A DNA stretch of 64,000 bases from an uncultured Acidobacteriota bacterium (lineage in GTDB: Bacteria; Acidobacteriota; Thermoanaerobaculia; Gp7-AA8), in assembly GCA_963822445.1 (NCBI GenBank), contig CAWGHO010000001.1:384001-448000 (forward strand). The letters are read 5' to 3'. Shown piece after piece: positions 15,473-31,146 of the stretch. Each line of letters starts with the position of its first letter. Within the stretch, counting starts at the first letter, position 1. The notes below the pieces were generated by a model, which saw only the letters and a list, made by a program, of their open reading frames with translations, was not told where the DNA came from and did no database searches. The translations under genes and the position numbers were made by a program.

Positions 15473-16228
15473 GTGCGGCCCAAGAAGAAATGGGGTCAAA
15501 ACTTCCTGCGAAATCGCGGCGCGGTCGAGAAGATCGTCGCGGCGATCGAGCCGCAGCCCGATGAGCTCGTACTGGAGATCGGGCCCGGTGAAGGCGCGCT
15601 CACGGACAAAGTGCTCGCGCTGCCGAACCGGGTCATCGCGCTGGAGATCGATCCCGACCTCGCCGCGCGTTTGCGCGCGAAGTACGGCGATCGCCTCGAA
15701 ATCCGCAATGAAGACGCGGTCGACGCGGAGCTGCCGGCGACGCCCTTTCGCGCTGTGGGCAACCTTCCCTACAACGTCGGCACGCCCATCCTGCGCCGGA
15801 TCATCGCCGAGCCCAATTGCCGCCGCGCCGTGTTCATGCTGCAGAAGGAAGTCGCCGATCGCATCGTGGCCAAGCCGGGCTCGGATCCATACGGCTACCT
15901 GACCCTGTACGTCGCCGCCTACGCATCGGCGAAGACACTGATGACCCTCGATCCGCGTTCGTTTTACCCGCCGCCGAAAGTGCGCAGCGCGGTGGTGGTG
16001 CTCGATCCTCGCGATCCCGGCCTCACGTCGCCGCGCGAAGAACTGCTCGACCTCGTCAGCGCGTCCTTCCGCATGCGCCGCAAGAAGCTGGTCAACAACT
16101 TGACGACGTGGCGGGATCACACTCGGGAGCAGGTGCTCGAGGCTATGGTGAGCGCGGACATCGACGTCGATGCCCGCGCCGAGACGCTTTCGCTCGCTGA
16201 TTTCGACCGGCTGTACTCCCGACTTTGA
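15473..16228 (+). CDS. rsmA: 16S rRNA adenine dimethyltransferase
   Basis: KKWGQNFL, LEIGPGEG, NLPYN, MLQKEVADR, FYPPPKV. Confidence 0.95.
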   Translation: MRPKKKWGQNFLRNRGAVEKIVAAIEPQPDELVLEIGPGEGALTDKVLALPNRVIALEIDPDLAARLRAKYGDRLEIRNEDAVDAELPATPFRAVGNLPYNVGTPILRRIIAEPNCRRAVFMLQKEVADRIVAKPGSDPYGYLTLYVAAYASAKTLMTLDPRSFYPPPKVRSAVVVLDPRDPGLTSPREELLDLVSASFRMRRKKLVNNLTTWRDHTREQVLEAMVSADIDVDARAETLSLADFDRLYSRL

Positions 16229-16263
16229 GGTACATTTCTTTCCCTTACCTGGAGGACCTCTCG

Positions 16264-18804
16264 TTGACCCGGACCCTGCTCGCCTCTCTTCTCCTTCTCG
16301 TTCTCGCCACCCCGGTTCTCGCCCAGCAATGTGACCTGCAGATCACCGCCACCTGTACACCGGGCGGCCACTGCACCAGCACCACGACCAACACCGGCCG
16401 CAACGCGTGCAGCGGCGTGTATTACATCGGCTGGATCGGCACCGATCCGACGGCGGCCGGCTCGCTGTCGGGCATCCAGAATTCGCTCGGCATCGACGAA
16501 TGCTTCGACACGAGCGACTTTCCGCCCGGCACGTTCCCGCAGGCGTTCGCCGTCTGCTTCGGCGAGGCGTCCCTCGCCGCCGGCGCCAGCTTCACCACGT
16601 CGGCGCGCATCACCGGCGCGAACGCGAACGTACCGCTGGTGGCCGTCACTCAGGTCATCGACCTGGAGGCCGGCGAAGCGCTTGCCGTGGTCCATGCGTT
16701 TGCGAACGCGGACGTGCCGTCGTGCAAACCGCGAATCAACGCGCCGGCCATCGCCCAGACCGGCGCCGACTACACGGTGTCCTGGTCGACCGTCGCCGAT
16801 CCGTCGGCGAGCTTCTTCGTCGAGGAATCGACGACGCCGGACTTCAGCGCCAATGTCGTGACCACCACAGTAAATGGCACTTCCAAGACCTTCCGCCACG
16901 ACGTCAGCACGGCGACGACCTACTACTACCGCGTGCGGCCGACGCAATGCGCCGGAGGTACCGCGGAGCATTCCGAGGTTGCTTCGACTGTCGTGCAGCC
17001 CCCGCCGCCGGTCGTTCGCGAGTCGGGTGAAGCCGCGGTGCCGCTTGGCAGCACGACACCGGTGCAGTTCCCGGTCTTCATCCCCGGTTTTGCGGGGAAC
17101 TCCACGCTCGCGACGACGACGTTCACAGCCTCCACCGACAAGTCCTTCCTGGCCGTGACCCCGAGCTCGGGAACGCTGCCGCCGGAAGGAACGACGGTCA
17201 CCGTCACCGCGAATCCAACCGGCCTGCAGGCGGGCGCGAATACCGGCTCGCTGAAGGTCACTGCCAACAACACCACCACCAGCATTCCCATCTCGATCAG
17301 CCTCGTGACACCGGTGCAGCCGGGAACGAAGAGCGTTCCCCCGTCGAATGCGCTGGTCATCCCCGTCGTCACGCACGTGCAGGGAGCGACCGGACCATTC
17401 CTCTCCGACGTCCGCCTCACCAACGCCTCGGCGAGCCTGCTGAAGTATCAGATCTCGATGACACCGACCGAGACCGATGCGACAAAGTTCAGCAAGGTCA
17501 CGACCGTCGACGTCGAGCCGCAGCAGACCATCGCCCTGAACGACATCGTGAAGAACTTCTTCGGCTTCGGCGCGACGACCGCGCCGGGCGATTTCGGGTT
17601 CGGCTCGCTGGAGATCCGGCCGCTGAACAGCTCCACGACGCAGACCTTCGCGTCGAGCCGCACCTACGCCAGCACGTCCACCGGCACCTTCGGCCAGTTC
17701 ATCGCCGCGGTGCCGTTCGGGCAGTTCATCACCCGGCGCTCCTCGGGCCTTCCGATTCCCGGCGAGCCCACCAGCAGCGCCGTCGTGTCGCTCCAGCAGA
17801 TCGCCCAGTCAGCGAAGTTCCGCACGAACCTCGGGCTGGTCGAAGGAGCCGGCGAAGCAGCCAGCGGCCGCATCCGCGTGTTCAACGACGCCGGAACGCT
17901 GCTGAAGGAACTGCCGTACAGCCTCCAGCCCGGCGAGCACAAACAGATGAACCGCTATCTGGAGGTGGAAGCGGGCATCACCAATCTCGAGGACGGCCGC
18001 ATCGAGGTCACCGTCGACTCGACCACGGGCGCGGTCACCGCCTACGCGTCCGTTCTCGACAACGTGACCACCGATCCCCTGGCCGTGATGCCGGTGGAAG
18101 TGTCGAAGGTCAGCGCCTCGCGTTACGTACTGCCGGGCATCGCCGAGCTTCCGGGCGAGAACAACTTCCACTCCGACATCCGCGTGTTCAACGGCGGCGC
18201 ATCGGACGTGGTGGCGAACTTCACCTACTACACCACCGGCATCGCGCCGATCAGCGCCGCACCGCGAACGATCAGGAAGGGCGAGGTCCTCGCGATCGAC
18301 AACGTGCTGCCCACGATGTTCAACCACAGCGGTACCGGCGGCTCGATCGTCATCACCACGAGCGGCAATTCGTCGCTCGTGGCCACGGCGCGCACGTACA
18401 CGAACGTCACCGGTGGCGGGACGTACGGGCAGTTCATCCCGGGCGTGACCCCGGACGAAGGGATCGGTCTGGGCGACGCTCCCCTCCAGGTCCTGCAACT
18501 CGAGCAATCAGACCGTTTCCGCTCCAACCTGGGCCTCGCCGAGTTGAGCGGCAATCCGGTCAGCCTGCGTCTCTCGGTGCATTTCCCCGACACGAAGATC
18601 ACGGCGTCGGTGCCGATCGATCTGGCGGCGAATGAGTTCGTCCAGCACGGCCGGATCATCGAGAACTTTTTCACCAACCCCGGCGATCAGACTTACAACG
18701 CGCGCATCACCGTGGAGGTGACCGGCGGCAGTGGACGCGTCACTGCTTACGGTTCGGTGATCGACAACAAGAGCAAAGACCCGACGTACGTTCCCGCGCA
18801 GTGA
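16264..18804 (+). CDS. Large secreted protein: Cys-rich N-terminus, FN3/Ig-like domains, two tandem copies of an uncharacterised beta module
   Basis: GGAGG SD before TTG 16264; signal peptide; TTYYYRVR FN3 motif; repeated RTY..GTxGQF and FRxNLGL..SVxDN..DP motifs. Confidence 0.75.
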   Translation: MTRTLLASLLLLVLATPVLAQQCDLQITATCTPGGHCTSTTTNTGRNACSGVYYIGWIGTDPTAAGSLSGIQNSLGIDECFDTSDFPPGTFPQAFAVCFGEASLAAGASFTTSARITGANANVPLVAVTQVIDLEAGEALAVVHAFANADVPSCKPRINAPAIAQTGADYTVSWSTVADPSASFFVEESTTPDFSANVVTTTVNGTSKTFRHDVSTATTYYYRVRPTQCAGGTAEHSEVASTVVQPPPPVVRESGEAAVPLGSTTPVQFPVFIPGFAGNSTLATTTFTASTDKSFLAVTPSSGTLPPEGTTVTVTANPTGLQAGANTGSLKVTANNTTTSIPISISLVTPVQPGTKSVPPSNALVIPVVTHVQGATGPFLSDVRLTNASASLLKYQISMTPTETDATKFSKVTTVDVEPQQTIALNDIVKNFFGFGATTAPGDFGFGSLEIRPLNSSTTQTFASSRTYASTSTGTFGQFIAAVPFGQFITRRSSGLPIPGEPTSSAVVSLQQIAQSAKFRTNLGLVEGAGEAASGRIRVFNDAGTLLKELPYSLQPGEHKQMNRYLEVEAGITNLEDGRIEVTVDSTTGAVTAYASVLDNVTTDPLAVMPVEVSKVSASRYVLPGIAELPGENNFHSDIRVFNGGASDVVANFTYYTTGIAPISAAPRTIRKGEVLAIDNVLPTMFNHSGTGGSIVITTSGNSSLVATARTYTNVTGGGTYGQFIPGVTPDEGIGLGDAPLQVLQLEQSDRFRSNLGLAELSGNPVSLRLSVHFPDTKITASVPIDLAANEFVQHGRIIENFFTNPGDQTYNARITVEVTGGSGRVTAYGSVIDNKSKDPTYVPAQ

Positions 18805-18812
18805 TGGATGAG

Positions 18813-18841
18813 GGAAAGCGGCGGCACTGCCGCCGCTTTCC
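18813..18841. terminator. Perfect GC hairpin (REP-like or terminator) after the secreted-protein gene
   Basis: GGAAAGCGGCGGCA-C-TGCCGCCGCTTTCC. Confidence 0.6.
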
Positions 18842-18868: not shown

Positions 18869-19744
18869 ATGCTCGACGCGTCCGCCACCGTCGACCGCAC
18901 GCGGCCGTTCATCTGCGACACGCTCACGCCGCTGTACTACACGGCGTCCTGGGCTGAGCTCGAAGCGCAGGAGCGTCTGACCTACAACCAGCTCAACGGG
19001 ATGTACTGGAACGAGCTGATCGCCGCGTTCGAGAGGGAGATGGCGATCGCCGTGCTGAACGCGGCGGGTAAGCGCGGCGACCTGCCCGCGGCAATCCACG
19101 AGCGGCTCCGCGGTTTCGCGAATGACGAGATCGAACACGCGCGGGCGTTCGCGCGACTCAATCAGCTGAGCGACCCGCGCCGTTACGCGAACGGGGACCG
19201 CTCACTGCTGCGCCTTCCCCCGGGTGCCGGATTGCTCGTGCCGCTGCTCGCGGCGTCGTCTGCCGTCAGCGCGCTGGTGTGGCTGATGTTGCTGATCGAG
19301 GAACGCTCGATCGCCGTCACCGAGATCGCGGCACGCAATCCGGACCTCGATCCCGCGTATGCGACTGTGTATGCCGCGCACGCGGAAGACGAGCGGCGGC
19401 ACGTGGCCGTCGACGTGGAGCTGCTGGCGCTACTGCACGAGCGTCGCGGAGCAACCGTCCGCTCGCTGACCGCGACCGTCTTTCGCTCGCTCGTGCAAAG
19501 GTTCCTGGTCGGCCCGGGTCCCGCCGCGATGCGCATCCTCGATGCGCTGATCGCCAGCCATCCCCGCCTCGCACCACTGCGTCCTCGATTGCGCCGCGAG
19601 TTACGCGCGCTGACCAGCGACCGCGGCTATCACCGGATGATGTACTCGCGCGAGAAGGTGCCGATCACCTTCGGCCTCTTCGATCGCCTTCCCGAGATGC
19701 GCCGCATGCAATCGGTCCTCCTCGGCTACGAGGCCACGGCATGA
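18869..19744 (+). CDS. Ferritin-like diiron oxygenase (AurF-like)
   Basis: NELIAAFE, DEIEH, LLIEE, EDERRH carboxylate/His ligand pattern. Confidence 0.7.
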   Translation: MLDASATVDRTRPFICDTLTPLYYTASWAELEAQERLTYNQLNGMYWNELIAAFEREMAIAVLNAAGKRGDLPAAIHERLRGFANDEIEHARAFARLNQLSDPRRYANGDRSLLRLPPGAGLLVPLLAASSAVSALVWLMLLIEERSIAVTEIAARNPDLDPAYATVYAAHAEDERRHVAVDVELLALLHERRGATVRSLTATVFRSLVQRFLVGPGPAAMRILDALIASHPRLAPLRPRLRRELRALTSDRGYHRMMYSREKVPITFGLFDRLPEMRRMQSVLLGYEATA

Positions 19745-20655
19745 CCCGCCATCGAATCCCAGGTGTCGCCAACGCGCTCATCGCCGTCGTCCAAGTGGCC
19801 GTGGTCGCCGCTCTTCTGCAAGCATCCTCGGGCGCGCGCGGCTGGCGGCTGGCGCTTTTCGCCGCGGGCTTCGCCCTCGTGATGAACTCGGTCTACTCGA
19901 TCATTCACGAGGCCGAGCACGGCATTCTCTTTTCGCGGCGATCGCTCAATGACGCCGCCGGCGTGAGCATGGCGTTGCTCTTTCCCGCGCCGTTTCACCT
20001 GATCCGGCAGGGACACATCGGTCACCACCAGCGCAATCGCTCGGACGACGAGGCCTTCGATTTCTATTTCGAGGGGGAACATCCGCTGTGGAAGCGGATG
20101 CAGTTCTACGGAATCCTCACCGGCTTCTACTGGCTGGTGGTGGTGATCTCGAACCTAGCCGTTCTGCTCGTGCCGCGGCTGTTCGACCGGACCCGTTTCG
20201 AGTTCGATCGCCCGTCCGCGGCGTTCATGGACGCGCTCAATCCCGCGTATTGGCGATGGATTCGCGTCGAGGCAGTCGCGGCGATCGCGATCCACGCCGG
20301 CGCGATCTGGTTTCTCGGCGACCCTCTCGCATATGCGGTGTTGTACGCAGCTTGGGGCGTGTCGTGGTCGGCGATGCAGTACGTGCATCACTTCGGCACC
20401 GAGCGCGACGTCCTCGACGGTGCCCGCAATCTCCGCCTCCTCGGCCCCATCGACGCGCTCTGGCTCAATCACAACTGGCATCTCACCCATCACCGCCATC
20501 CCACCGTTCCCTGGCCTCACTTGCCGAAGGTTGCCGCTGAGGAACAGCAGGGGGAGCGGGGATTCCTGCCGGTGGCGTACTTCAGAATGTGGCGCGGCCC
20601 CCGATTCACCGACGTGCGAGTGAGGAACCGCTATGCAGGACGCATCGTCAATTGA
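19741..20655 (+). CDS. Membrane fatty acid desaturase family protein
   Basis: His boxes HEAEH, HIGHH, HLTHH; several TMs; ATGA overlap at 19741. Confidence 0.88.
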   Translation: MTRHRIPGVANALIAVVQVAVVAALLQASSGARGWRLALFAAGFALVMNSVYSIIHEAEHGILFSRRSLNDAAGVSMALLFPAPFHLIRQGHIGHHQRNRSDDEAFDFYFEGEHPLWKRMQFYGILTGFYWLVVVISNLAVLLVPRLFDRTRFEFDRPSAAFMDALNPAYWRWIRVEAVAAIAIHAGAIWFLGDPLAYAVLYAAWGVSWSAMQYVHHFGTERDVLDGARNLRLLGPIDALWLNHNWHLTHHRHPTVPWPHLPKVAAEEQQGERGFLPVAYFRMWRGPRFTDVRVRNRYAGRIVN

Positions 20656-21328
20656 GCCGGTTCCGGTGATCGCGCTGCCGGTGTCGCGCCGGCTGGCGAT
20701 GCTGGTGATGGGCTATGTCTCACTGCTGCATCTCCTCGGATGCGTTGCGCTCCTTTTCGTGCCGCAGACGCCGGCCGTGCGCATCGGAGCATTCCTCGCC
20801 GCGCTCTACCTGCTTCCGCCGCTGGTCGCGCGGATCACGCTCGCGGTCGCGCCGCTCGAGCCGCGCGTGCACGGCATTCACGAGCGCGGATTTCTGGTCT
20901 GGTGGTGGACGCAGCAGTGGCAGACGCTCTTCAACCGCATTCCGCAACTCGAGGAGCTGCTGCGGCTCGTTCCCTCGCTCTACAGCGCCTGGCTGCGGCT
21001 CTGGGGATCGCGCGTGGGAAAGCTCGTGTACTGGGGGCCCGGCGTCACGATCCTCGACCGCCCGCTGATGATCATCGGCGACCAGGCCATGTTCGGCGCG
21101 GGCGTGCGCATGATCGCCCACATCGTCAATCGCACGGCCGACGGCCGCGTCGACGTGACCATTGCACCGGTGACCATCGGCTCGACCGCGATCGTCGGCG
21201 CGTACTCGCTCCTCGGACCGGGCGTGATCATCGGCGAGGGCGAGTCGACGCCCGCGGCGCTCCCGATGTCGCCGCATTCGGAGTGGCGCGGCGGACGGCG
21301 CATCGCCCGGAGACGCAATGCGCTCTGA
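20633..21328 (+). CDS. Membrane-anchored left-handed beta-helix acyltransferase-like protein
   Basis: Two TMs, WLRLWGSRVG, hexapeptide repeats (VTIGSTAIVGAYSLLGPGVIIG). Confidence 0.65.
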   Translation: MQDASSIEPVPVIALPVSRRLAMLVMGYVSLLHLLGCVALLFVPQTPAVRIGAFLAALYLLPPLVARITLAVAPLEPRVHGIHERGFLVWWWTQQWQTLFNRIPQLEELLRLVPSLYSAWLRLWGSRVGKLVYWGPGVTILDRPLMIIGDQAMFGAGVRMIAHIVNRTADGRVDVTIAPVTIGSTAIVGAYSLLGPGVIIGEGESTPAALPMSPHSEWRGGRRIARRRNAL

Positions 21329-21953
21329 GCTCGCGGCGCGGCTGCGCAGCGAGTGGCGGTACAAGCTTCTGCTCTCGATCGCGTTGCCGCTGTATTTCTG
21401 CGCGCTGTACTTCGCGCTGCAGCGGGTCGTGATCTTCACGCCGCGCGTGCTGTCGCTGACGGCGCTCGATCGCGCGGTGCCGTTCGACATCCGCTGGACG
21501 GCGGTTTATCAGTCGCTCTACCTCTTTCTGCCGATGCCCTGGCTCGCGGCGCGGCGCGAAGAGCTCCATCGCTACACGCGAGGCTTCTTCGCCTTCACCC
21601 TGATCAGCTTCGCCGCTTTCTACCTGGTGCCTGTCGCCGGCCCACGTCCGGTGAGCAGCGACAGCAACGTGCTCTATCAGTTGCTGATCACCTACGACCG
21701 CAATCTCAACGCCTTCCCCTCCCTCCACGCCGCGCTGGCCGTCTACACCCTCTTCCTCGGTGCACGGCTGCTGTCCCGTGCGCGAACGATGATCCTCGCC
21801 GCGGGCGGCGTCTGGTGCATGCTGATCCTCTATGCGACGCTCGCCACCAAACAGCACTACGCCGTTGACGTCGCGGCCGGAATCGCGCTCGCCGTCGCCG
21901 CCGACGCATTCGCCTGGGGATACACTCCGCTCACACAAGCAGAGGAGGTTTGA
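21318..21953 (+). CDS. PAP2 superfamily phosphatase/phosphotransferase (AUR1/IPC-synthase-like)
   Basis: Six TMs; NAFPSLH and KQHYAVD catalytic motifs. Confidence 0.8.
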   Translation: MRSELAARLRSEWRYKLLLSIALPLYFCALYFALQRVVIFTPRVLSLTALDRAVPFDIRWTAVYQSLYLFLPMPWLAARREELHRYTRGFFAFTLISFAAFYLVPVAGPRPVSSDSNVLYQLLITYDRNLNAFPSLHAALAVYTLFLGARLLSRARTMILAAGGVWCMLILYATLATKQHYAVDVAAGIALAVAADAFAWGYTPLTQAEEV

Positions 21954-21954
21954 G

Positions 21955-22581
21955 ATGAGACAGATCCACGGATCCCGGATCGCGCTCGTTCTCCTGGTTC
22001 TTTTCGCGTTCCCGCTGATGGCCAGTGAAGAGGCGGATCACGAGGCGCTGCGGCAACTGCGCGCTCTGTACGAGAAGGCCGTCAACGAGGACCAGCTCGA
22101 CCTCCTCCGCCCGCACGTGGCCACGCCGCTGTATGGCGTGATGATCACCAGCAAGCGCGTATCGAGCGTCGACGACATGAAGCAGTACTGGGCGGCGATG
22201 AAGAAGCTGATGGGTCCGGGCAGTACGTATCAGGTCAAGGTCGAGCCCGAGCGGAGCGTGTTCATGGGCGACTTCGCGCTTGCCCGCGGCACGACCTCCG
22301 ATGTCGTCACCACCGGCAACGGCAAGACCTATCGCTTCGGCACGAACTGGACCGCCGTCCTCCGCCGTGACAACGGCGTCTGGAAGCTCGTGCAGGTGCA
22401 GGGCTCGATGGATCCGGTGAACAACGAGTTCGTGCGCACGTTCATGCGCGACGCAATCGTGAAATCGGCCGCCGCGGCGGGCATCGTCGGCCTGCTCATC
22501 GGTGTCTTCGCCGGATACCTCTTCGCAAGAAGGGGAGCGGGCGTCCCGCCCGCGTCGGTCGGGCGTCCCGCCCGATCGTAG
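21955..22581 (+). CDS. Exported NTF2/SnoaL-like protein with C-terminal TM anchor
   Basis: GAGG SD, signal peptide, NTF2 signature WTAVLRRDNGVWKLVQ, C-terminal hydrophobic helix. Confidence 0.7.
   Translation: MRQIHGSRIALVLLVLFAFPLMASEEADHEALRQLRALYEKAVNEDQLDLLRPHVATPLYGVMITSKRVSSVDDMKQYWAAMKKLMGPGSTYQVKVEPERSVFMGDFALARGTTSDVVTTGNGKTYRFGTNWTAVLRRDNGVWKLVQVQGSMDPVNNEFVRTFMRDAIVKSAAAAGIVGLLIGVFAGYLFARRGAGVPPASVGRPARS
22537..22575. repeat. Two REP-like short palindromes CGGGCGTCCCGCCCG
   Basis: GCGGGCGTCCCGCCCGC and TCGGGCGTCCCGCCCGA at a convergent gene junction. Confidence 0.55.
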
Positions 22582-22593
22582 AAGCGCACAACC

Positions 22594-23619
22594 TCAGAAC
22601 CGCAGCGTAACCACCGACGTCGACTCCTCCGTGGCCCGCGACGCCACGGCATCGCGCCACAGGCGAAGAATGCGGGGGCCGAGGAGGTCCGTTTCGGCGA
22701 AGGTGTAGCGGGGGGCGTCGAACCTTCGCAGATTCGCGGAATGCTCGGCGAGGATCTCCACGTCCTGGCGCAGGATGCGGCGCGACAGCGGCTCGAAGTA
22801 GAGCCTCACCAACGGCGCGATGGAGCCGTAGCGAAACGTGACCACCGTGTACACATCGGTCTCGTGCGCGGAGACCGGCGTGCACTGCGAGGTGATGATG
22901 AAGTGCCGCTCGCTGCTGAACGAATAATCGACGCGGCTGGTGGTGGGCATCACGAAGCGATCCGTGTGGGTGAGCTTTCCCGCCCTGGGAAAAAGCAGGC
23001 GCGCGACGACACTTCGCCGTTCCGGCTCTTCATCAAACTCCGCGACCGCGCCGTCGCGCTCCGTTCTCACCGTTGCCGTGGCCACGCGTGTCGCGCGCGT
23101 GCGGAAGAGTCCTCCGTGAACGTAGACCGTGTGCGGGACGTCGAGAAAATTCTCGAGACAGGCAAACGCGCTGGCCTCGAAGCGCGTGGTCATGCGGAAC
23201 GTCGTCCATCGGGGTTCATCGACGTTGGGAAAAACGAAAGGCTGCACCGCCGGCTCCCCTTCGCCCATGTAAATCCAGATGAAGCCTTGTTGTTCGCGAG
23301 CAGGAAACGACGGCACTTTCGCCTGAGGTAGGTCCTCACGCACGAGCGAAGGTGCCGCGGTGCACGTGCCGCGGCCGTCGAAGGTCCAGCCGTGGTACGG
23401 GCACTCGATGCCGTTCGCGGTCGTGCGGCCGGCGGAGAGGCGCATGTTGCGGTGCGCACAGCGATCGAGCAGCGCGGACGCAACGCCGTTTCCGTCGCGG
23501 AACAACACGATGGGCTGGCCGAGGATCGTGCGGCGGATGGGTTTGTGGCGAAGGGTTTGCGCGGTTGCCGCGATGTACCAATACCGAGTCAGACTGAGTG
23601 CCAGCTCCGATTCGGTCAT
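22594..23619 (-). CDS. Rieske non-heme iron oxygenase (VanA-like)
   Basis: CAHR...CPYHGW Rieske ligands; ENFLDVPHTVYVH mononuclear iron motif. Confidence 0.9.
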   Translation of the reverse strand: MTESELALSLTRYWYIAATAQTLRHKPIRRTILGQPIVLFRDGNGVASALLDRCAHRNMRLSAGRTTANGIECPYHGWTFDGRGTCTAAPSLVREDLPQAKVPSFPAREQQGFIWIYMGEGEPAVQPFVFPNVDEPRWTTFRMTTRFEASAFACLENFLDVPHTVYVHGGLFRTRATRVATATVRTERDGAVAEFDEEPERRSVVARLLFPRAGKLTHTDRFVMPTTSRVDYSFSSERHFIITSQCTPVSAHETDVYTVVTFRYGSIAPLVRLYFEPLSRRILRQDVEILAEHSANLRRFDAPRYTFAETDLLGPRILRLWRDAVASRATEESTSVVTLRF

Positions 23620-23626
23620 CGACGTT

Positions 23627-23636
23627 ACTGTACGAT
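23627..23636. promoter_or_regulatory. Overlapping divergent -10 hexamers inside the biosynthetic cluster
   Basis: TACAGT on minus and TACGAT on plus share one TA; each lies 7 nt from an ATG (23619, 23644). Confidence 0.55.
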
Positions 23637-23643
23637 ACCGGAC

Positions 23644-24249
23644 ATGCTCCCCGTGCGGCCGTTCCTTGCCGCGGCGTCAGGTCTGGCGCTGACGGCAGCG
23701 ATCTTCTTCTGGCGGCAGAATTTCGGAGGGCAGATCGGCGGGGAGATGTCCCTCGCCAAGATCCTCTGGCTCCACTACACCATCCTGGCCTGGTTCGTCC
23801 TGCCGGCGTTTCTGTGCCGTTCGCCGCTGCTGCCGCGCCCCTGGCGGCGCGTCTTCGCGGCCCATCTGATCAACTTCAGCGCGCGCGCGGTGATCGAGCT
23901 GTTCCTGCTGTACGTGACGGTCAGCTGGAGCCCGCTCTACGGCATCGTCCACGACCTTTTCTCGATCGCCCTCATCGCCGTGCTCGCGCGCGACGCGGCG
24001 GTTACCAGCGAACATGCTGTATTGGCGCGGCGGTTCTCGTGGACGCTGCGCGTGACGCTGGTCTGCGAGATCGTTTTCGCGGCGATGTTCTTCGTCGCCC
24101 AGGCCGGACAACGCGATCTCTACTTCGCCAGCGACGATCCCCGATTCCGCCTGATCAACGCGCTGACGACCATCGTCGACCTCGCCGTTTACACAGATCT
24201 GTTCCTGCTGCTGCGCCGCGCCCTGATCCGGGAGCCCCAGCGTGTCTGA
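23644..24249 (+). CDS. Integral membrane protein of unknown function
   Basis: About six hydrophobic helices; overlaps the next gene. Confidence 0.7.
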   Translation: MLPVRPFLAAASGLALTAAIFFWRQNFGGQIGGEMSLAKILWLHYTILAWFVLPAFLCRSPLLPRPWRRVFAAHLINFSARAVIELFLLYVTVSWSPLYGIVHDLFSIALIAVLARDAAVTSEHAVLARRFSWTLRVTLVCEIVFAAMFFVAQAGQRDLYFASDDPRFRLINALTTIVDLAVYTDLFLLLRRALIREPQRV

Positions 24250-24982
24250 GGAAACGCTCACCAGCGCGGTGATCCCTGCATCGCGCGTCGATCGGGATGC
24301 CCTCTTCACGATCTTCGAGGCGAATTACGACCGCGCCGATCGCGCGCGATTCGAAGAGGACCTCGACGGCAAGGACGCGGTGATCGTGCTGCGGCGCTCC
24401 GATGGCTCGATCGCCGGATTCTCGACGCAGGCCGTCTTCGAAGTCCTGCACGAGAACCGCCGCGTACGCGTGCTCTTCTCCGGCGACACGATCATCGATC
24501 CGCGCAACTGGGGCACGCAGGAGCTCGTGCGGGCGTGGTGCCGTTTCGCCGGAACGGTCAAAGGCGAAACACCCGATCTGCCGCTGTACTGGCTGCTCAT
24601 TTCGAAGGGCCACCGGACGTACCTGTATCTCCCCTTCTTTTTCCACCGCTTCTTCCCTTCGTGCGAGCACGTGCCGCCGGCCTTCGAGCAGTCACTCATG
24701 CACCGGCTCGGAACGAAGCGCTTCGCCGATCGTTATGACGCGCGGACCGGCTTGATCGATGCCGATGCACCGCTCGATCGCCTCCGTCCGGAGATCGACT
24801 CCGCGCCGCAGCGCGCGCACAACCGCCACGTCGCGTTTTTTCTCGAGCGCAACCCGCGCTACGCGGACGGCGTGGAGCTGCTGTGCCTCACGGAGATCGA
24901 TCCGTCGAACATGCGCTCGTTCGCCCGGCGTGAAGCGGAGCGCGGGATGGCCGAGGTCGTGGAGCTGGCGGGGGTGCGGTGA
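24242..24982 (+). CDS. GNAT-like protein associated with the GH3 gene
   Basis: IAGFST, FSGDTIIDPRNWG acyl-CoA-binding-like strand-loop, WLLISKGHRTY. Confidence 0.55.
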   Translation: MSEETLTSAVIPASRVDRDALFTIFEANYDRADRARFEEDLDGKDAVIVLRRSDGSIAGFSTQAVFEVLHENRRVRVLFSGDTIIDPRNWGTQELVRAWCRFAGTVKGETPDLPLYWLLISKGHRTYLYLPFFFHRFFPSCEHVPPAFEQSLMHRLGTKRFADRYDARTGLIDADAPLDRLRPEIDSAPQRAHNRHVAFFLERNPRYADGVELLCLTEIDPSNMRSFARREAERGMAEVVELAGVR

Positions 24983-26454
24983 GAACGGCCGTTGAGCGAT
25001 GGCTCGCGACCGGCGAGCAGGGCGCGGCGCGTTTCTCCGCTGCGGTTCACCATCCGCGCGTTGCGCAGGAGCAGATTCTGCTCGAGACGCTACGCGCGAA
25101 TGCGAACAGCGAATACGGTCGGCGGTTTGGATTTGGCGCGATTCGCTCTGTCGCCGAGTACCAGCGCCACGTTCCGATCGTCACGTACGACGACATCGAA
25201 GACGACGTGATGCGGAACGTGCTCACCAGTGAGCCCGCGGTCATGTTCGAGAAGACTTCCGGCTCGACATCGGCGGCGAAGTACATCCCCTTCACCGAGT
25301 CGCTGCGAAGACAGTTTCTGAACGGCGTGTCGGCGTGGATGCGCGATTTGTACGGCGCGCACCCGGAATTGAAGCAGGGCCGCGCCTACTGGTCACTCTC
25401 CCCGCTCGCCGCCGATCGCGAGATGACCAGCGGCGGATTGAAGGTTGGATTCGAAGACGATCGCGACTACTTCGCTGGCGAGGCCCGGGAGGCACTGGGT
25501 GAGATCCTCGTCCGGCCGCGGCTCCGTGATCAGTACGGAACCCTGCGAGCGCTTGCCGGGGAAGAGTCGCTCGCGTTCATCTCCATCTGGAATCCGACAT
25601 TCCTCACGGCGATGCTGGCGCGGCTCGAGGAGTGGAGCGAGCGGATCGTCGCGGAGACCGCGAACCCCCGTCTGCATCGACTGCTCGCTCGCGACGGACG
25701 GCTCATTCCGCACCACGTCTGGCCCAATCTGCGGGTGATCAGCTGTTGGACCCACGCCGCCGCCGCACTCGCCGTTCCAAGGCTCGCGGCGATCTTTCCA
25801 AACGTCGAGCTGCAGCCGAAAGGGTTGCTTGCAACGGAAGGTGTCGTCTCGATTCCCATCACCGCCGCCGGCGGCGCGGTACTGGCGATCACCTCTCATT
25901 TCCTCGAGTTCCTCGACGAGCGCGGCGACACCCATCTCGCCGATGAGTTGCGCGAGGGCCACGAATACCGCGTCCTCCTCACAACCGCCGGCGGCCTGTA
26001 TCGCTACGACCTCGGCGACATCATCTGCGTAACCGGCCTCTTCGCATCGACGCCGATCGTCGAGTTCGTCGGCCGCGCGGGCGACGTGAGCGATCTCTGC
26101 GGCGAGAAACTGTCGGAAGCGTTCGTCGGTGCCGCGCTGGCACGGGAGCGGATCGATGCGGCATTGCTCTTCCTCGCGCCCCGCGAGGGCAATCCGCCGC
26201 GCTACGCGCTGTTCGCCGAGACCAATGCGCCGATCGACGCGGACCGGATCGACACGGCGTTGCGCGCGAACCCGCACTATCGCTTCTGCCGCGATGCGGG
26301 ACAGCTCGCGCCCATCGAAGTCGTCCGGCTGCGGCAAGGTGCGGCGGAAACGTATCTGCGCCTCCGCGCGGGAAGCGGCAGAACAGGCGACGTGAAACCG
26401 CGCTCGCTCGAACGGAACGCCGACTGGCTGACGGCGCTGGAGGCCGCGTCGTGA
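24979..26454 (+). CDS. GH3 family acyl-adenylate/amide synthetase
   Basis: TSGST, LLATEG, GGLYRYDLGD, FVGR, GEKLSE motifs. Confidence 0.88.
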   Translation: MRTAVERWLATGEQGAARFSAAVHHPRVAQEQILLETLRANANSEYGRRFGFGAIRSVAEYQRHVPIVTYDDIEDDVMRNVLTSEPAVMFEKTSGSTSAAKYIPFTESLRRQFLNGVSAWMRDLYGAHPELKQGRAYWSLSPLAADREMTSGGLKVGFEDDRDYFAGEAREALGEILVRPRLRDQYGTLRALAGEESLAFISIWNPTFLTAMLARLEEWSERIVAETANPRLHRLLARDGRLIPHHVWPNLRVISCWTHAAAALAVPRLAAIFPNVELQPKGLLATEGVVSIPITAAGGAVLAITSHFLEFLDERGDTHLADELREGHEYRVLLTTAGGLYRYDLGDIICVTGLFASTPIVEFVGRAGDVSDLCGEKLSEAFVGAALARERIDAALLFLAPREGNPPRYALFAETNAPIDADRIDTALRANPHYRFCRDAGQLAPIEVVRLRQGAAETYLRLRAGSGRTGDVKPRSLERNADWLTALEAAS

Positions 26455-27530
26455 CGCGTTACGTCGTCGAGCTCGCGCGAAACGAGGACGACGCCGCCCT
26501 GCGCGGCCTGCTCGCGCGCAACTCGATGGCCGGACCGATCGAGCTGGCCTTTCTGCGCGAGCCCGGATACTTCCTCGCGTCCCCCGTTCAGGCCCCGCGA
26601 CACCAGATCATCGTCGCGCGCGACGGCAAGGAAGTCGTCGGCGCTGCATTCCGCGGCATCCGCAAGACCTGGCTCAATGGCCAGGTTCGCGACGCCGGCT
26701 ACCTCGGCGATCTCCGCCTCGACGTAGCCCACCGCGGCGGCTCGCTGGTCGCCCGCGGCTATCGCTTTCTGCGCGAGTTGCACGCTGACCGCGGCGCGTC
26801 GCTGTACCTGACTCTCATCGCCGGCGCGAATGAAATCGCGCTGAAGACGATCGCCGCAGGCCGCGCCGGCCTGCCGTCGTACAAGCCACTGGGCCGGATC
26901 TTCACCCCAGCGGTGCGGCTGAGTGGATGGTCGAAGAAACCGGCGCGAATCAAGATCGTGCGCGGCAGTGAAGTCAGCCGAGGCGAGCTCGCGGCGTGCC
27001 TTCAACGGAATCTCGCCCGCCGCCAGTTCGCGCCGTTCCTCGATCTCGAGACGCGCTTTCCCGGTCTGACCCTCGACGATTTCGCGGTCGCCGTGCGCGA
27101 TGGGAAAGTGATCGGCGCGGTCGCGGCGTGGGATCAGAACGCATTCCGGCAGACGCGTGTCGTTCGCTACCGCGGAACGGTGCGGGCGGGACGGCCGCTG
27201 TACAACCTCGTGGCGCCGCTGCTCGGCACGCCGCGCTATCCGAAGCCGGGCGAAACGCTGCGATTCTTCTACGCGTCCTTCGTCGCCATCGATGACGACG
27301 ATCCGGAAGTCTTTCGCGCTTTGCTGGCGCGTCTCGCAGCCGACCGCGCCGGGCGTTACCACTATTTCGTGGTCGGACTGCACGAGCGCGATCCGCTGCT
27401 GCCGGTCGTGAATCAGTTGCCGAGAACGCCATTCACCGCGCATGCGTTCGCCGTCCATTTCGAGGACGGCCTGGAGGATTTCGAATCGCTCGACGGACGC
27501 GTGCCGTACGTCGAGCCGGCCATGCTATGA
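26451..27530 (+). CDS. GNAT-fold protein (tandem GNAT-like)
   Basis: FLREPGYF, GYLGDLRLDVAHRGG motif A; GTGA coupling. Confidence 0.65.
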   Translation: MTRYVVELARNEDDAALRGLLARNSMAGPIELAFLREPGYFLASPVQAPRHQIIVARDGKEVVGAAFRGIRKTWLNGQVRDAGYLGDLRLDVAHRGGSLVARGYRFLRELHADRGASLYLTLIAGANEIALKTIAAGRAGLPSYKPLGRIFTPAVRLSGWSKKPARIKIVRGSEVSRGELAACLQRNLARRQFAPFLDLETRFPGLTLDDFAVAVRDGKVIGAVAAWDQNAFRQTRVVRYRGTVRAGRPLYNLVAPLLGTPRYPKPGETLRFFYASFVAIDDDDPEVFRALLARLAADRAGRYHYFVVGLHERDPLLPVVNQLPRTPFTAHAFAVHFEDGLEDFESLDGRVPYVEPAML

Positions 27531-30256
27531 GCACGCTCACCGCCGACACACCGCTTTCCACACCGCAGGTAACCGCGGCCGCGAGACGTCTCGACGCGCG
27601 GATTCCGTTCGCGATCCTGCTGACGCTCTACGCCGTCGCGGGCGTGACCGTTCTGCGCTTCAACCGCACGCCGCTGCAAATGCTCATCACCGTCTCCGCG
27701 ACCTGTGCACTGGACATGTTCTTCGCGCGCGTCATCCGCCGCGAGAAGCTCGTCCCGCTCAGCGCCTACATCAGCGGCCTCTCGCTCGCGCTGCTCCTCA
27801 ACTACGCGCACGACAGCTGGATTCTGCTTCTTCCGGTCTTCCTGACCATCGCCTCCAAGTACGTCCTCACGTTCGAAGGGCGCCATGTCTTCAACCCGTC
27901 GATGTTCGGAGTCGCGGTCTCGCTGCTGATCGGCGGAGACCTCATCACCACCGCGCCCGCGTATCAGTGGGGCGGCGGCGCGGCCGGCACGTGGGCGATG
28001 TCCGCATTCCTGGCCGCCGCCGCGCTCTCGCTTTTCGTCTTCCGCGTCGGACGCGCGCCGCTGATCGTCTCCTTCCTCGGCTTCTACGCCATCCAGATTC
28101 TGCTGCGCGCCTACTGGATGCGCTGGTACCTGCCGCCGGAGTCGCTGATCCTCGGCACGCTCACCAGCGCACCGTTCTTCCTCTTCGTCTTCTACATGAT
28201 CACCGACCCCAAGACTTCGCCGGCCAGGCCGCGCGATCAGGTCCTGCTCGCGTTCGGGCTCACCGTCGTCGATCTTCTGTTTCACACGCGCGGCAGCCTC
28301 TACACCTTCTTCTACGCCGCGCTGGTCGTCGCATCCGCGCGTTTCGTCTTCCTTCACCTCCGCCGCAGACGATTCGCATTCAACGCCCGCGCATGGACCG
28401 TCGTCGCCGCAACCGGCGCGGTGATGATCGCGACGTACGCGATAACCGTGCAGCCCTTCGCCGCACCGCCGCCGCTCACATTCGACTTGGTGAAGCTCGA
28501 TCCACTGCAGACCGGCGTGGCGCCGAAACTCGACGGCTCGATCATCAACGAGGCCGATCCGCGCGTGCGTCACATCGCCAAGTGGCTCCTCTCCGCGGGT
28601 GACGCGGCAGCCGCGGCGGACTTCGACAACGACGGCCGGCTGGACCTCTTTCTCTGCGGTCCCTTCAAGACCGTCGACGACCGGGCTATCCTCTATCGCG
28701 GCACCGGGGCGATGACGTTCGAGCGCGTCCGCGTACCGGCGCTCGAGAAAATCGTCGCCGACCCGCGCCGCTTCGGCATCATCTCCAGCGGCTCGTTCGT
28801 CGATCTCGACAACGACGGCGATCGCGACCTCTTCCTCACCGTCGGTTACGGCCGCAGCATCCTTCTGCGCAACGACCTTACCGAGCGCGGCGTGGCGGAG
28901 TTCGCCGAGGTTGCGGATGCGGGGACGGGCGATTACTCGATCAGCATCGCCGCGAACTTCCTCGACTTCGACAACGACGGAAAGCTCGACGTCTTCGTCG
29001 CCAACGCTCTCGATCCGATGCTCCGCAAATACGACCCGCCGCGGCCGCTGAGCATCTTCGCGCTCGAGCAACCGGAGCATCCCGGCGACCGCCGCATGCT
29101 GCCGTTCATGCACAGCAGCTGGGACAACGCGCGAAACGGCGGCCCTAACGTCCTCTACCGCAACCAGGGCGCCAACCGCTTCACGCGCGTCGATCCGGGC
29201 ATGCCCGAAACGCACTGGAGCCTGTCGGTGGCGACGGCGGACTTCAACGGCGACGCGCGCACCGATCTCTACGTCGCCAACGACTTCGGTCCCGACGACT
29301 TCTATCTGAATGAAGGGAAGGGGCGCTTTCGCAAGATCGAAGGGCGCATCGCCGGCGAGATCAGTCACGACACGTACAAAGGCATGAACGCGTCGCAGGG
29401 CGACGTCGACCGCAATGGCCATCCCGACGTGTATGTGTCGAATGTGCACATGCCGCTGCAGGCCGAAGGAAGCCTGCTGTGGATGACCTACCCGGGGCGC
29501 GATGGCGTGCCGGAGCTGCGCGACGAGGCCAATCAACGCGGCGCGCTCAACGAGCATCGCTTCGGCTGGGGCGGGGCGATGGGCGATCTCGACAACGACG
29601 GCTGGCTCGACATCGTCCAGGCCAACGGCATGATCGACGACGCGTTCGACAGGAAATTCGAGCAGTGCCGGGATTACTGGTACGTCAACGAGAAGCTGAT
29701 GCGCTCCGGCCCGGAGATTCACACCTACGCGGACAAGTGGGGCGATCTGCGCGGCTACTGCATCAACGGGCGCGAGTCGAATCGCGTGTACCTCAGCCGT
29801 GGCGATCGCGAGCGGCTGCAGTTCGCCGACGTCGCCCCGCGCCTCGGCTGGAAGGACGAGCCTCCATCGCGCGGCGTCCTCCTCGCCGACTTCGACGACG
29901 ACGGCGATCTCGACCTGGGCATGACCCACATCACCGCGCCGATCACGCTGTACCGCAACACGCGCAATGAGCGGGGCGGGCGGTGGATCGGCTTCGACGT
30001 CCGCGGAAACGGAACGACGTGCAATCGCGACGCGGCCGGCACGCGAGTAACCATCTCCTATCCGGAAAACGGACGTACCGTGACCCAGATGCGCGAGATC
30101 TCGATCGTCAACGCGTTCGCCGCCCAGGGCGATCGCCGCGCGCTCTTCGGCCTCGGCGACTACAAAGGCGACGTCGACGTGACCATCTCCTGGTGCGGCC
30201 GCAGCGAGACCCGGATGCGCGTCAACACGAATCGCTATCACGTGATCCAACAATGA
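27527..30256 (+). CDS. Fusion: RnfD/NqrB-like (UnbU-like) membrane domain + FG-GAP propeller + ASPIC/UnbV domain
   Basis: Multi-TM N-terminus with FNPSMFG and YMITDPKTSP; about seven DxDxDGxxD repeats; C-terminal RDAAGTRVTI...ALFGLG. Confidence 0.8.
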   Translation: MSTLTADTPLSTPQVTAAARRLDARIPFAILLTLYAVAGVTVLRFNRTPLQMLITVSATCALDMFFARVIRREKLVPLSAYISGLSLALLLNYAHDSWILLLPVFLTIASKYVLTFEGRHVFNPSMFGVAVSLLIGGDLITTAPAYQWGGGAAGTWAMSAFLAAAALSLFVFRVGRAPLIVSFLGFYAIQILLRAYWMRWYLPPESLILGTLTSAPFFLFVFYMITDPKTSPARPRDQVLLAFGLTVVDLLFHTRGSLYTFFYAALVVASARFVFLHLRRRRFAFNARAWTVVAATGAVMIATYAITVQPFAAPPPLTFDLVKLDPLQTGVAPKLDGSIINEADPRVRHIAKWLLSAGDAAAAADFDNDGRLDLFLCGPFKTVDDRAILYRGTGAMTFERVRVPALEKIVADPRRFGIISSGSFVDLDNDGDRDLFLTVGYGRSILLRNDLTERGVAEFAEVADAGTGDYSISIAANFLDFDNDGKLDVFVANALDPMLRKYDPPRPLSIFALEQPEHPGDRRMLPFMHSSWDNARNGGPNVLYRNQGANRFTRVDPGMPETHWSLSVATADFNGDARTDLYVANDFGPDDFYLNEGKGRFRKIEGRIAGEISHDTYKGMNASQGDVDRNGHPDVYVSNVHMPLQAEGSLLWMTYPGRDGVPELRDEANQRGALNEHRFGWGGAMGDLDNDGWLDIVQANGMIDDAFDRKFEQCRDYWYVNEKLMRSGPEIHTYADKWGDLRGYCINGRESNRVYLSRGDRERLQFADVAPRLGWKDEPPSRGVLLADFDDDGDLDLGMTHITAPITLYRNTRNERGGRWIGFDVRGNGTTCNRDAAGTRVTISYPENGRTVTQMREISIVNAFAAQGDRRALFGLGDYKGDVDVTISWCGRSETRMRVNTNRYHVIQQ

Positions 30257-31146
30257 CAACGCCGTTCAACAACCCGGACCTGCACGTCGAGAGCTGGTAC
30301 GTGGCCATGCCGTCGCGCGAGCTCGCACGGGGGAAAGCGAAAACGCTCGACGTTCTGAACCGCAAGATCGTCTTCTTCCGCGGTGAAGACGGGACTGTCC
30401 GCGCGCTCGACGCACGCTGCCCGCACCTAGGCGCGGACCTCGGCATCGGCACCGTGGAGGGCAACCGCATCCGCTGCGCGTTTCACGGCTGGACGTTCGA
30501 TGGCGATGGGCATTGCGCGAATGCGCGCGCCGTCGCGTACCCGGTCGAGGAGCGCCACGGCGCGATCTGGTTCTTCAACGGCGCACGCGCCTCATTCGAG
30601 GTTCCGGCGTTCGCCTCGAACGACCGCGTGGTGATGCTGAAGCCGCAAGTCATCCACTGCCATCCGCATCTGATCGCCTGCAACGGCCTCGACCTCGATC
30701 ACTTCGCGACGTTGCACGAAATCGCCTTTCTCGACGAGCCTCGCTTCGAACAGCCCGATGCGTTTCGCACGCGGATGCGCATGCGGTTGCGTTTCACCGG
30801 CAACGGCCTGATCGACCGCATGCTCCGTTCGCTGGGCGGCAACGACGTCACGGTCGCGTTCACGACCTGGGGCGGGAACATCGCCACGATCGACGGCTCG
30901 CTCGGCCGCATCCCCATCCGCGTGCTCTTCTCCCACCGCCCCATCCTCGGCCGCAACAGTCTTTCGCGCACATTCGTGTTCGTGCCGACACGCTTCATGT
31001 TGCCGGTGGTGCTGATGGTTCTCGCGCGAATCGTCGTCGGCGACCGTGAGCTGCTCGACCGCCTCGATTTCCGCGAGAACCTCACCAGCCGGGACTGGGC
31101 ATTGGCCGCGTTCATCGAGCAGGTGAACGCGATGCCTGTGCACTGA
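30253..31146 (+). CDS. Second Rieske non-heme iron oxygenase
   Basis: ATGA overlap; CPHLG...CAFHGW; NGLDLDHFATLH. Confidence 0.85.
   Translation: MTTPFNNPDLHVESWYVAMPSRELARGKAKTLDVLNRKIVFFRGEDGTVRALDARCPHLGADLGIGTVEGNRIRCAFHGWTFDGDGHCANARAVAYPVEERHGAIWFFNGARASFEVPAFASNDRVVMLKPQVIHCHPHLIACNGLDLDHFATLHEIAFLDEPRFEQPDAFRTRMRMRLRFTGNGLIDRMLRSLGGNDVTVAFTTWGGNIATIDGSLGRIPIRVLFSHRPILGRNSLSRTFVFVPTRFMLPVVLMVLARIVVGDRELLDRLDFRENLTSRDWALAAFIEQVNAMPVH

Follow-up and report, generated by a model that had tools for sequence, protein, structure and literature searches.

The window analyzed here is a 64,000-nucleotide (nt) stretch of DNA from an uncultured Acidobacteriota bacterium (contig CAWGHO010000001.1). 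Positions 18869-31146 hold twelve open reading frames (ORFs), g01 to g12, which form a real, widely conserved and uncharacterized gene cluster. At its center stands the gene of a GH3 acyl-acid amido synthetase (g09), enclosed by the genes of two proteins with a predicted GNAT fold (g08 and g10). The cluster is modular: these three genes are a core, or triad, to which exchangeable tailoring modules are joined. The features are listed below with their lengths in amino acids (aa) and the basis of each assignment; AF2 stands for AlphaFold2.

18813..18841, plus strand: hairpin with a 13-bp stem and a 3-nt loop, after the upstream 859-aa gene; upstream edge of the cluster
18869..19744, plus strand: g01, AurF-like ferritin-type diiron oxygenase, 291 aa, one hydrophobic segment (Pfam)
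19741..20655, plus strand: g02, membrane His-box diiron enzyme (desaturase or hydroxylase), 304 aa (Pfam)
20633..21328, plus strand: g03, membrane-anchored left-handed beta-helix (LbH) acyltransferase-like protein, 231 aa (Hexapep and TIGR02353)
21318..21953, plus strand: g04, PAP2_3 lipid-phosphate enzyme of the AUR1/sphingomyelin-synthase-like subfamily, 211 aa (Pfam)
21955..22581, plus strand: g05, NTF2-like protein (SnoaL/DUF4440), 208 aa (Pfam SnoaL_3)
22594..23619, minus strand: g06, Rieske non-heme iron oxygenase, alpha-type subunit with VanA_C catalytic domain, 341 aa (Pfam)
23644..24249, plus strand: g07, polytopic membrane protein of no family, 201 aa (five hydrophobic segments)
24242..24982, plus strand: g08, GNAT-fold protein of an undescribed family, 246 aa; core triad (AF2 and Foldseek)
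24979..26454, plus strand: g09, GH3 acyl-acid amido synthetase, 491 aa; center of the triad (Pfam GH3, GH3_M and GH3_C)
26451..27530, plus strand: g10, tandem GNAT protein with an N-myristoyltransferase-like fold, 359 aa; core triad (AF2 and Foldseek)
27527..30256, plus strand: g11, RnfD/NqrB-like membrane domain, FG-GAP beta-propeller and UnbV_ASPIC domain, 909 aa (Pfam)
30253..31146, plus strand: g12, second Rieske oxygenase, 297 aa, one C-terminal hydrophobic segment (Pfam)

Five neighboring gene pairs (g01/g02, g08/g09, g09/g10, g10/g11 and g11/g12) overlap by the 4 nt of an ATGA or GTGA, and three further overlaps measure 23, 11 and 8 nt. Only g06 is inverted; it is convergent with g05 and divergent from g07, its start lying 24 nt from that of g07. 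A promoter scan found no sigma-70-like site upstream of g01 and nothing promoter-like by g06 and g07. Domain calls with Pfam and NCBIfam on all twelve proteins, together with the ORF layout, bear out what an earlier note on this DNA, made from the letters alone, had described as twelve tightly packed genes with named domains. That note also placed the pathway at the membrane, and six of the twelve proteins (g02, g03, g04, g05, g07 and g11) do carry two to nine hydrophobic segments. Its statement that the cluster lacks a polyketide synthase (PKS), a nonribosomal peptide synthetase (NRPS) and a precursor peptide holds as well. Pfam finds no condensation, adenylation, thiolation or ketosynthase domain in the twelve proteins, the nearest thing being a weak NCBIfam match of g03 to an NRPS terminal domain, and since the whole cluster has only 37 nt of non-coding DNA (gaps of 1, 12 and 24 nt), there is no room between the genes for a precursor-peptide gene. 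An NRPS, PKS or RiPP (ribosomally synthesized and post-translationally modified peptide) cluster was rejected on these grounds.

A three-gene core with exchangeable modules

For comparison, a GH3 alignment was scanned against one genome per species, and the best GH3 relatives among 594 confirmed matches, a non-random choice, supplied a set of 80 loci. The twelve window proteins were compared with these loci by tblastn; the gene-by-gene counts below require a coverage of at least 70%, the count of the triad at least 50% for each gene. In addition, every ORF of at least 80 aa in the 80 loci was clustered all against all, so that families could be ranked without bias towards the window.

The triad is present in 60 of the 80 loci, from 13 named phyla, and in 39 of these 60 it lies within 4.5 kb. 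Gene by gene, g09 is found in 80 loci, g08 in 68 and g10 in 59; in the unbiased clustering, the three most widespread families are again GH3 (78 loci), g10 (62) and g08 (62). The earlier note had staked its reading in advance on the genes occurring together in other genomes, and they do: eleven of the twelve recur in L044 and L037 (Planctomycetota) and in L002 (Chthoniobacter, Verrucomicrobiota), with the gene order shuffled, and ten recur in L013 (Udaeobacter, Verrucomicrobiota), in yet another order. The closest relative, L003 (Thermoanaerobaculia), is a short contig with g06-g11 at 53-74% identity. It shares the inversion of g06, a gene that is co-directional with its neighbors in L002, L013, L041, L044 and others. 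Hence the twelve-gene cluster of the earlier note stands insofar as its genes recur together, yet it is not a fixed unit: it consists of a core and modules, and one of its genes is on the opposite strand.

The accessory genes are found less often (g06 in 21 loci, g02 in 20, g12 in 16, g07 in 13, g05 in 12, g11 in 10, g01 in 9, g04 in 7 and g03 in 4; g04 reaches 13 when counted by clustering). In the window they fall into two sets, one made up of the g06 Rieske enzyme, the g07 membrane protein and the RnfD-like/beta-propeller protein g11, and the other of the diiron enzyme g01, the His-box enzyme g02, the LbH protein g03, the PAP2_3 enzyme g04, the NTF2-like protein g05 and the second Rieske enzyme g12. 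The commonest neighbor family after the triad is absent from the window. It consists of B12-binding radical S-adenosylmethionine (radical-SAM) proteins, with 127 ORFs in 43 loci, and two to five such genes stand in each locus in Clostridia, Fibrobacter, Bacteroidales, Melainabacteria and Chloroflexota. Sorted by module, 31 loci have radical-SAM genes only, 24 and the window have oxygenases only, 12 have both and 13, mostly short contigs, have neither. When radical-SAM genes are set against the g06-type Rieske gene alone, 42 of the 80 loci have only the former, 20 only the latter, one (L053) both and 17 neither; none of the loci with g11 has a radical-SAM gene. Nine radical-SAM neighbors searched against NCBIfam gave generic B12-radical-SAM likeness only (HpnJ, BchE and PhpK models), far below the cut-offs, so that no particular reaction is indicated for them.

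A GH3 tree of 77 rows (IQ-TREE quick, LG+G4) makes L003 the partner of the window (support 98) and sets both in a 20-row clade of which 18 rows are oxygenase-only. Phyla are mixed within the GH3 clades, which indicates horizontal transfer. Two labels in the tree call for comment. L024, which has a Rieske gene besides its GH3 gene, comes from a contig labeled Nanoarchaeota, and the closest branch to its GH3 is the sister sequence of a Melainabacteria bacterium (support 99); either the contig was misbinned or an archaeon received the genes by transfer. L009 and L010, metagenome-assembled genomes labeled Clostridia and Acidobacteriota, have nearly identical GH3 genes (end branches 0.03 and 0.045), and one of the two labels is probably wrong. 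Elsewhere in the set, the Acidobacteriaceae/Acidiferrum loci L016-L018, L032, L052 and L007 have the triad with g06 and g11, adjoined by genes that the window lacks, namely a second FA_desaturase, a cytochrome P450 and an FA_hydroxylase-family gene. Four other conserved neighbor families (c16, c18, c25 and c30) have no Pfam or NCBIfam match, and some may be opposite-strand shadow ORFs. Among the clustered ORFs of the 80 loci, no transporter, exporter, receptor, regulator, resistance, glycosyltransferase or flippase gene is conserved with the cluster.

The central enzyme, g09, scores 126.2, 57.7 and 24.9 bits for Pfam GH3, GH3_M and GH3_C, each against a cut-off of 23.6. Three nucleotide-binding motifs are present, namely TSGST at residue 93, the ATEG block A285-G288 and YRYDLGD at residue 341; the ATEG block does not vary among 17 relatives, nor do G95, R342, Y343 and D347 of the other two motifs.

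Its two partners are harder to place by sequence. The window g08 has no Pfam or NCBIfam family, and single-sequence and profile searches of PDB sequences both gave no usable match; for g10, the single sequence found no PDB match, its profile weak GNAT matches only, and Pfam Acetyltransf_1 reaches 18.9 bits, below the cut-off. Fold prediction was therefore needed. In the g08 model (AF2 pLDDT 94.2), the first ~135 residues adopt a GNAT fold, and the best PDB matches in Foldseek are GNAT acetyltransferases (E about 1e-5, TM about 0.4). The g10 model (pLDDT 95.3) resembles eukaryotic N-myristoyltransferases (TM 0.58-0.62, E about 1e-11 to 1e-12) and, after these, Eis-like bacterial GNATs. Alignments of 45 and 42 relatives drawn from related loci agree: 8 of the 45 g08 relatives match Acetyltransf_9 weakly, while 17 and 12 of the 42 g10 relatives match Acetyltransf_1 and Acetyltransf_9, respectively. 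By predicted fold, then, both proteins belong to the GNAT superfamily, and the earlier note was right to call them GNAT-like; acyl transfer is their putative function. A predicted complex of GH3 with g08 scored 0.00, which speaks neither for nor against an interaction. An atlas search with g08 returned unnamed or "GNAT family" clusters. When its family profile was run against 1.84 billion cluster representatives (50% identity), 2623 matched at E<=1e-3, 927 of them at E<=1e-30, a family for which Pfam has no model.

Gene fusions tie this core to other enzymes. Fusions of g08 with GH3 occur in P0003, P0297, P0314, P0378, L003 and L052. Eight unusually long matches to the g08 profile were scanned for domains: three are g08-GH3 fusions, one (P0374) joins PAP2_3, FA_desaturase and g08 within one protein, one (P0377) joins g08 to Lnb_N, in one (P0299) the partner of g08 is a Cupin_8/JmjC hydroxylase domain, and the last two contain nothing recognizable besides g08. 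In L047 (Myxococcaceae), a PAP2_3-FA_desaturase fusion lies 8 kb from the GH3 gene. Lnb is described as the lipoprotein N-acyltransferase of Bacteroides in the part of PMC11573676 available to us. Through these fusions, the soluble core is linked to the second module with its integral-membrane enzymes and to the chemistry of lipid acyl transfer; the fusions with Cupin_8/JmjC and Lnb_N hint that the pathway has more variants. To the earlier note, the analysis adds the modular build of the cluster, its core of three genes, the fusions and, for anaerobes, the radical-SAM counterpart.

Accessory proteins and edges of the cluster

The accessory enzymes look active from their residues, since the His-box, DExxH, Rieske/2-His and PAP2 residues, like the GH3 nucleotide motifs, are all present. 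In g01, Pfam AurF scores 34.6 bits (cut-off 29.6); the protein has two DExxH motifs, DEIEH at residue 86 and DERRH at 174, of which E87, H90, D174, E175 and H178 are invariant in 9 homologues. Its best solved relatives, reached by the profile at E 2e-5, are the remote AurF structures 3chh and 2jcd, and amine oxidation is a predicted activity. The second diiron enzyme, g02, scores 98.8 bits for FA_desaturase and has four hydrophobic segments and the His boxes HEAEH, HIGHH and HLTHH. Of the two Rieske enzymes, g06 (Rieske 73.5 bits, VanA_C 43 bits) has CxH...CxxH and ExxxDxxHxxxxH motifs, and g12 (Rieske 81.5 bits) has CxH...CxxH and the 2-His iron motif DxxHxxxxH. In most mapped loci that have g12 as well as g02/g05 genes, g12 is near the latter, and those loci also keep radical-SAM genes.

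Of the remaining proteins of the second set, g04 scores 55.1 bits for PAP2_3, with four hydrophobic segments and a weak NCBIfam match to phosphoinositol dihydroceramide synthase. It has PSLH at residue 134 and HYAVD at 180, which contain the catalytic His/His/Asp, and no KxxxxxxRP, a pattern that we take to be that of the transferase branch (inositol phosphorylceramide (IPC) and sphingomyelin synthases). In g03, N-terminal hydrophobic segments precede a Hexapep match of 26 bits, just short of the 27-bit cut-off; against TIGR02353 (Pls/PosA NRPS terminal domain), it aligns to profile positions 481-671 of 695 at E 2e-10 with 39.6 bits, the cut-off being 423. There is also a weak NCBIfam likeness to polysaccharide O-acetyltransferases such as WcaF. 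The NTF2-like g05 (SnoaL_3 23.3 bits, cut-off 22) has a signal-like N-terminal hydrophobic segment at 9-27 and a C-terminal anchor at 167-185, and its profile finds NTF2-fold structures (3h51 at E 6.5e-9), together with ketosteroid isomerases, BaiE and SgcJ.

In the first set, g07 has no Pfam or NCBIfam match, and an atlas search gave nothing above 0.89 and unnamed clusters only; the gene lies beside g06 or g11 in most mapped loci. The large protein g11 scores 123 bits for FG-GAP_3, 45.5 for NQR2_RnfD_RnfE and 35.6 for UnbV_ASPIC, and its about 9 hydrophobic segments all lie inside residues 22-308. This architecture recurs, with a membrane domain 54-81% identical in proteins labeled from about ten phyla. 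Such conservation of the RnfD-like domain (window 27527-28490; relatives P0122-P0240) is unusually high and suggests a tightly constrained function, possibly the binding of a cofactor; no flavin mononucleotide (FMN)-transferase gene is nearby. Identity of this N-terminal domain with the enediyne protein UnbU/E5 was considered and dropped, there being no NCBIfam match and no paper in support.

The edges of the cluster are fixed by comparison with the 80 loci: window ORFs of a family common to at least three of them all lie inside 18869-31146, and none lies in the flanks within 8001-42000. The hairpin and the convergent ABC operon that the earlier note gave as bounds are both there. The hairpin folds with a dG of -35.7 kcal/mol (z -4.76; 0 of 200 shuffles equally stable) and went unlisted in a terminator scan because no T-run follows it, and the ABC operon encodes an NMT1-like binding protein, a permease and an ATPase. 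G+C is even along the window (0.62-0.68), so the cluster is not conspicuous by composition. Just ahead of the hairpin ends the gene of an 859-aa protein (16225-18804, plus strand), which is not conserved in related loci; its translation has a signal-like hydrophobic N-terminal stretch, and its only domain matches are weak (BACON_2/Cep192_D6). Farther upstream, an unrelated Bat/MoxR-type operon (8709-15449, minus strand) contains genes for a BatD-like protein, a TPR protein, two VWA proteins (one with a BatA N-terminus), an unassigned ORF, a DUF58 protein and a MoxR AAA_3 ATPase.

Candidate product and rival explanations

From the gene content we infer a product, and we are about half convinced that the cluster makes an amide-linked amphiphile, most likely a membrane aminolipid. 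The precedent is OlsH, the only characterized bacterial GH3 enzyme according to the part of PMC12493201 available to us, which makes N-acyl-ornithine from a free fatty acid with ATP and Mg2+ and without coenzyme A (CoA) or acyl carrier protein (ACP). By analogy, the GH3 enzyme of the window would adenylate a lipophilic carboxylic acid, such as a free fatty acid, and couple it to an amine such as an amino acid. The GNAT-fold proteins g08 and g10 may then take more acyl groups from acyl-CoA or acyl-ACP and attach or pass them on, and the N-myristoyltransferase-like fold of g10 would suit a long-chain acyl donor. Next, the four O2-dependent iron enzymes would hydroxylate, desaturate or N-oxygenate the product, a tailoring role that B12-radical-SAM enzymes may fill in anaerobic relatives. 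The PAP2_3 enzyme could work at a hydroxyl, either transferring a head group that contains phosphate or removing one, and the LbH protein could acylate; g05, g07 and g11 would act in the membrane or on its periplasmic side. The chemistry put forward as possible in the earlier note includes alkyne formation, amine N-oxidation, head-group transfer and a fatty or aromatic acid as starter.

This lipid reading is favored by the fusions with PAP2_3, FA_desaturase and Lnb_N, by the six membrane proteins among twelve, by the lipid-type genes of the Acidobacteriaceae loci and by the OlsH precedent. The absence of conserved exporter, regulator and resistance genes beside the cluster also fits a product kept in the membrane. 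Several points weigh against it. Each chemical step is read off superfamily membership; the window GH3 is far from OlsH, and neither an OlsI-type alpha/beta-hydrolase nor an OlsG methyltransferase is encoded. Neither the twelve genes nor the nearest flanking genes encode a reductase or ferredoxin domain to serve the Rieske enzymes, although such a partner may lie elsewhere. The 80 loci were picked as best GH3 relatives and so are not a random sample. Moreover, near-exclusive as the raw counts of radical-SAM and g06-type Rieske genes are, their pattern follows the GH3 tree. A test on phylogenetically independent pairs, of which two or three were informative, is not significant (p about 0.25), and because informative contrasts are so few, replacement of radical-SAM enzymes by the g06-type Rieske enzyme, or by oxygenases in aerobes at large, is kept only as a hypothesis.

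Other points against a lipid speak at the same time for a soluble specialized metabolite that derives from an aromatic or amino acid and serves, for example, as a signal, chelator or antibiotic, a possibility that we hold to be real yet clearly the lesser one. In that route, GH3 ligation and GNAT acylation would be joined by AurF-like N-oxygenation and Rieske ring hydroxylation, with the membrane proteins in export or self-protection. Small aromatic molecules are the usual substrates of AurF-type enzymes, to which the nearest solved structure of g01 belongs, and of VanA-type Rieske enzymes. Hydroxylation of free amino acids is within the range of the FA_desaturase family, and the second-best NCBIfam match of g02, a weak one, is the guanitoxin arginine hydroxylase GntB. 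Acyl transfer with ATP-dependent amide ligation resembles the logic of NRPS-independent siderophore pathways. The UnbV domain of g11 is known from enediyne clusters, and the mixed phyla in the GH3 clades suggest a horizontal spread typical of specialized metabolism. The GH3 family, moreover, includes enzymes that conjugate aromatic acids (PMC12493201, available part), and acids of other kinds are also among GH3 substrates. Nevertheless, no exporter, receptor, regulator or resistance gene accompanies the core, half of the proteins are membrane-bound, g08 is fused to integral-membrane lipid enzymes (PAP2_3 and FA_desaturase) and to Lnb_N, and a core in 13 named phyla, gut anaerobes included, would be unusually broad for a single specialized metabolite.

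It is unlikely, in our judgment, that the cluster instead modifies an existing envelope component, the candidates being phospholipid head groups, lipoprotein N-termini, lipid A and precursors of the cell wall or of polysaccharides. PAP2 enzymes do include envelope lipid phosphatases, g10 has the fold of protein N-myristoyltransferases, g03 is weakly like WcaF and other polysaccharide O-acetyltransferases, periplasmic domains are present in g05 and g11, and g08 is fused to Lnb_N, Lnb being a Bacteroides lipoprotein N-acyltransferase (PMC11573676). However, GH3 enzymes are known to join free acids with free amines, and the available part of PMC12493201 names no GH3 enzyme that acts on a macromolecule. 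No glycosyltransferase or flippase is conserved with the triad, and as the triad is found in both diderm and monoderm phyla, an envelope target would need to exist in cells of either kind. That the cluster serves to break down an aromatic or amide compound, or that the adjacency has no functional meaning, is very improbable. VanA_C-type Rieske oxygenases are typical of aromatic demethylation and catabolism, but a ring-cleavage enzyme, a reductase, a transporter and a regulator are all missing, an ATP-consuming ligase with three acyltransferase-like proteins points to synthesis, and anaerobic relatives keep the triad with radical-SAM genes. Chance adjacency is excluded by conservation across phyla in shuffled order and by the gene fusions.

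Returning to the aminolipid, one might go further and propose, rather speculatively, that the triad marks a large undescribed class of amide-lipid pathways. These would come in an anaerobic version with B12-radical-SAM enzymes and an aerobic one with Rieske, diiron and His-box enzymes, and the full aerobic set, through hydroxylation followed by PAP2_3, would give a ceramide-like phospholipid without serine palmitoyltransferase. If the aminolipid reading is true, the cluster stands for an overlooked family of membrane lipids or lipid-like amides, whose makers would include soil Acidobacteriota, Verrucomicrobiota, Planctomycetota, Chloroflexota and Myxococcota as well as gut Clostridia, Fibrobacter and Bacteroidales. 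Bacterial GH3 enzymes would then have a second job beside ornithine lipids, their sole known role so far, and the products of abundant soil phyla could become lipid biomarkers. The triad itself could serve as anchor genes for genome mining, all the more as rule-based finders of biosynthetic gene clusters would, in the view of the earlier note, probably miss the cluster. The split between radical-SAM enzymes and oxygenases is a testable case for oxygen availability shaping tailoring chemistry.

Comparison with known systems

The earlier note did not recognize the gene combination as a characterized pathway, and a full-text literature search, with subscription journals outside its reach, likewise found no description of it, OlsH being the only relevant match. 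Other systems resemble it in single parts. Like the enediyne cassettes, the cluster has an UnbV (E4) element, since g11 ends in UnbV_ASPIC after FG-GAP repeats, and some g11 relatives are labeled "enediyne biosynthesis protein E4" in their source records. The cassette, as set out in the available part of PMC5181780, is E3/E4/E5/E/E10, with a PKS (E) and a thioesterase (E10) beside E4/UnbV. In contrast, the window has no PKS (E), E3, E5 or E10, and g11 adds an N-terminal RnfD-like domain; an enediyne PKS cassette was accordingly rejected, the UnbV_ASPIC domain of g11 being its only element present. The LbH protein g03, in which transmembrane segments are followed by hexapeptide repeats, recalls the C-terminal membrane/LbH domain of Pls/PosA-type synthetases, matching the last TIGR02353 repeat; unlike these, it is a stand-alone protein of 231 aa without adenylation or thiolation domains.

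With the AurF/CmlI arylamine N-oxygenases, g01 shares an above-threshold Pfam AurF match and the two DExxH motifs, although it is remote from them (E 2e-5), has a hydrophobic segment and lies in a cluster of membrane enzymes. The PAP2_3 protein g04 is like the AUR1/IPC-synthase and sphingomyelin-synthase PAP2 enzymes in its subfamily, its His/His/Asp and its lack of KxxxxxxRP. A bacterial or eukaryotic sphingolipid pathway was nonetheless rejected: none of the twelve proteins has a serine palmitoyltransferase-type (aminotransferase) or ceramide-synthase match in Pfam or NCBIfam, and no serine palmitoyltransferase-type family is among the annotated conserved families of the 80 loci. The acceptor lipid of the PAP2_3 enzyme would therefore come from the GH3/GNAT core. 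All three Pfam domains and the nucleotide-binding motifs of g09 are those of the plant GH3 acyl-acid amido synthetases. These, however, act alone on hormone acids, whereas the window GH3 is tied to two GNAT-fold partners and is elsewhere sometimes fused to one of them.

The closest parallel is the ornithine-lipid pathway of Singulisphaera acidiphila. It comprises OlsH, which has the GH3 nucleotide-binding motifs, OlsG, and OlsI, an alpha/beta-hydrolase O-acyltransferase of the same operon; its authors, whose work on OlsH depended on cell-free extracts to which fatty acid was added, expect other amines for other GH3 clades, including one enriched in Acidobacteria (PMC12493201, available part). 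A review (PMC12971839), in the part available to us, names GH3 only in connection with OlsH. The differences are clear. The window GH3 scores 52.5 bits against the NCBIfam equivalog cut-off of 620, its best stretch covering residues 22-120 only, and none of the twelve proteins has the alpha/beta-hydrolase domain of OlsI or is a methyltransferase like OlsG. In their place stand two GNAT-fold partners, four iron oxygenases, PAP2_3, the LbH protein and the RnfD-like/beta-propeller protein. What the two have in common is a bacterial GH3 with tailoring genes alongside, and OlsH starts its aminolipid by ATP-dependent N-acylation. Taken together, the cluster is not a member of the OlsH pathway but works like it, as a GH3-initiated amide or aminolipid biosynthesis.

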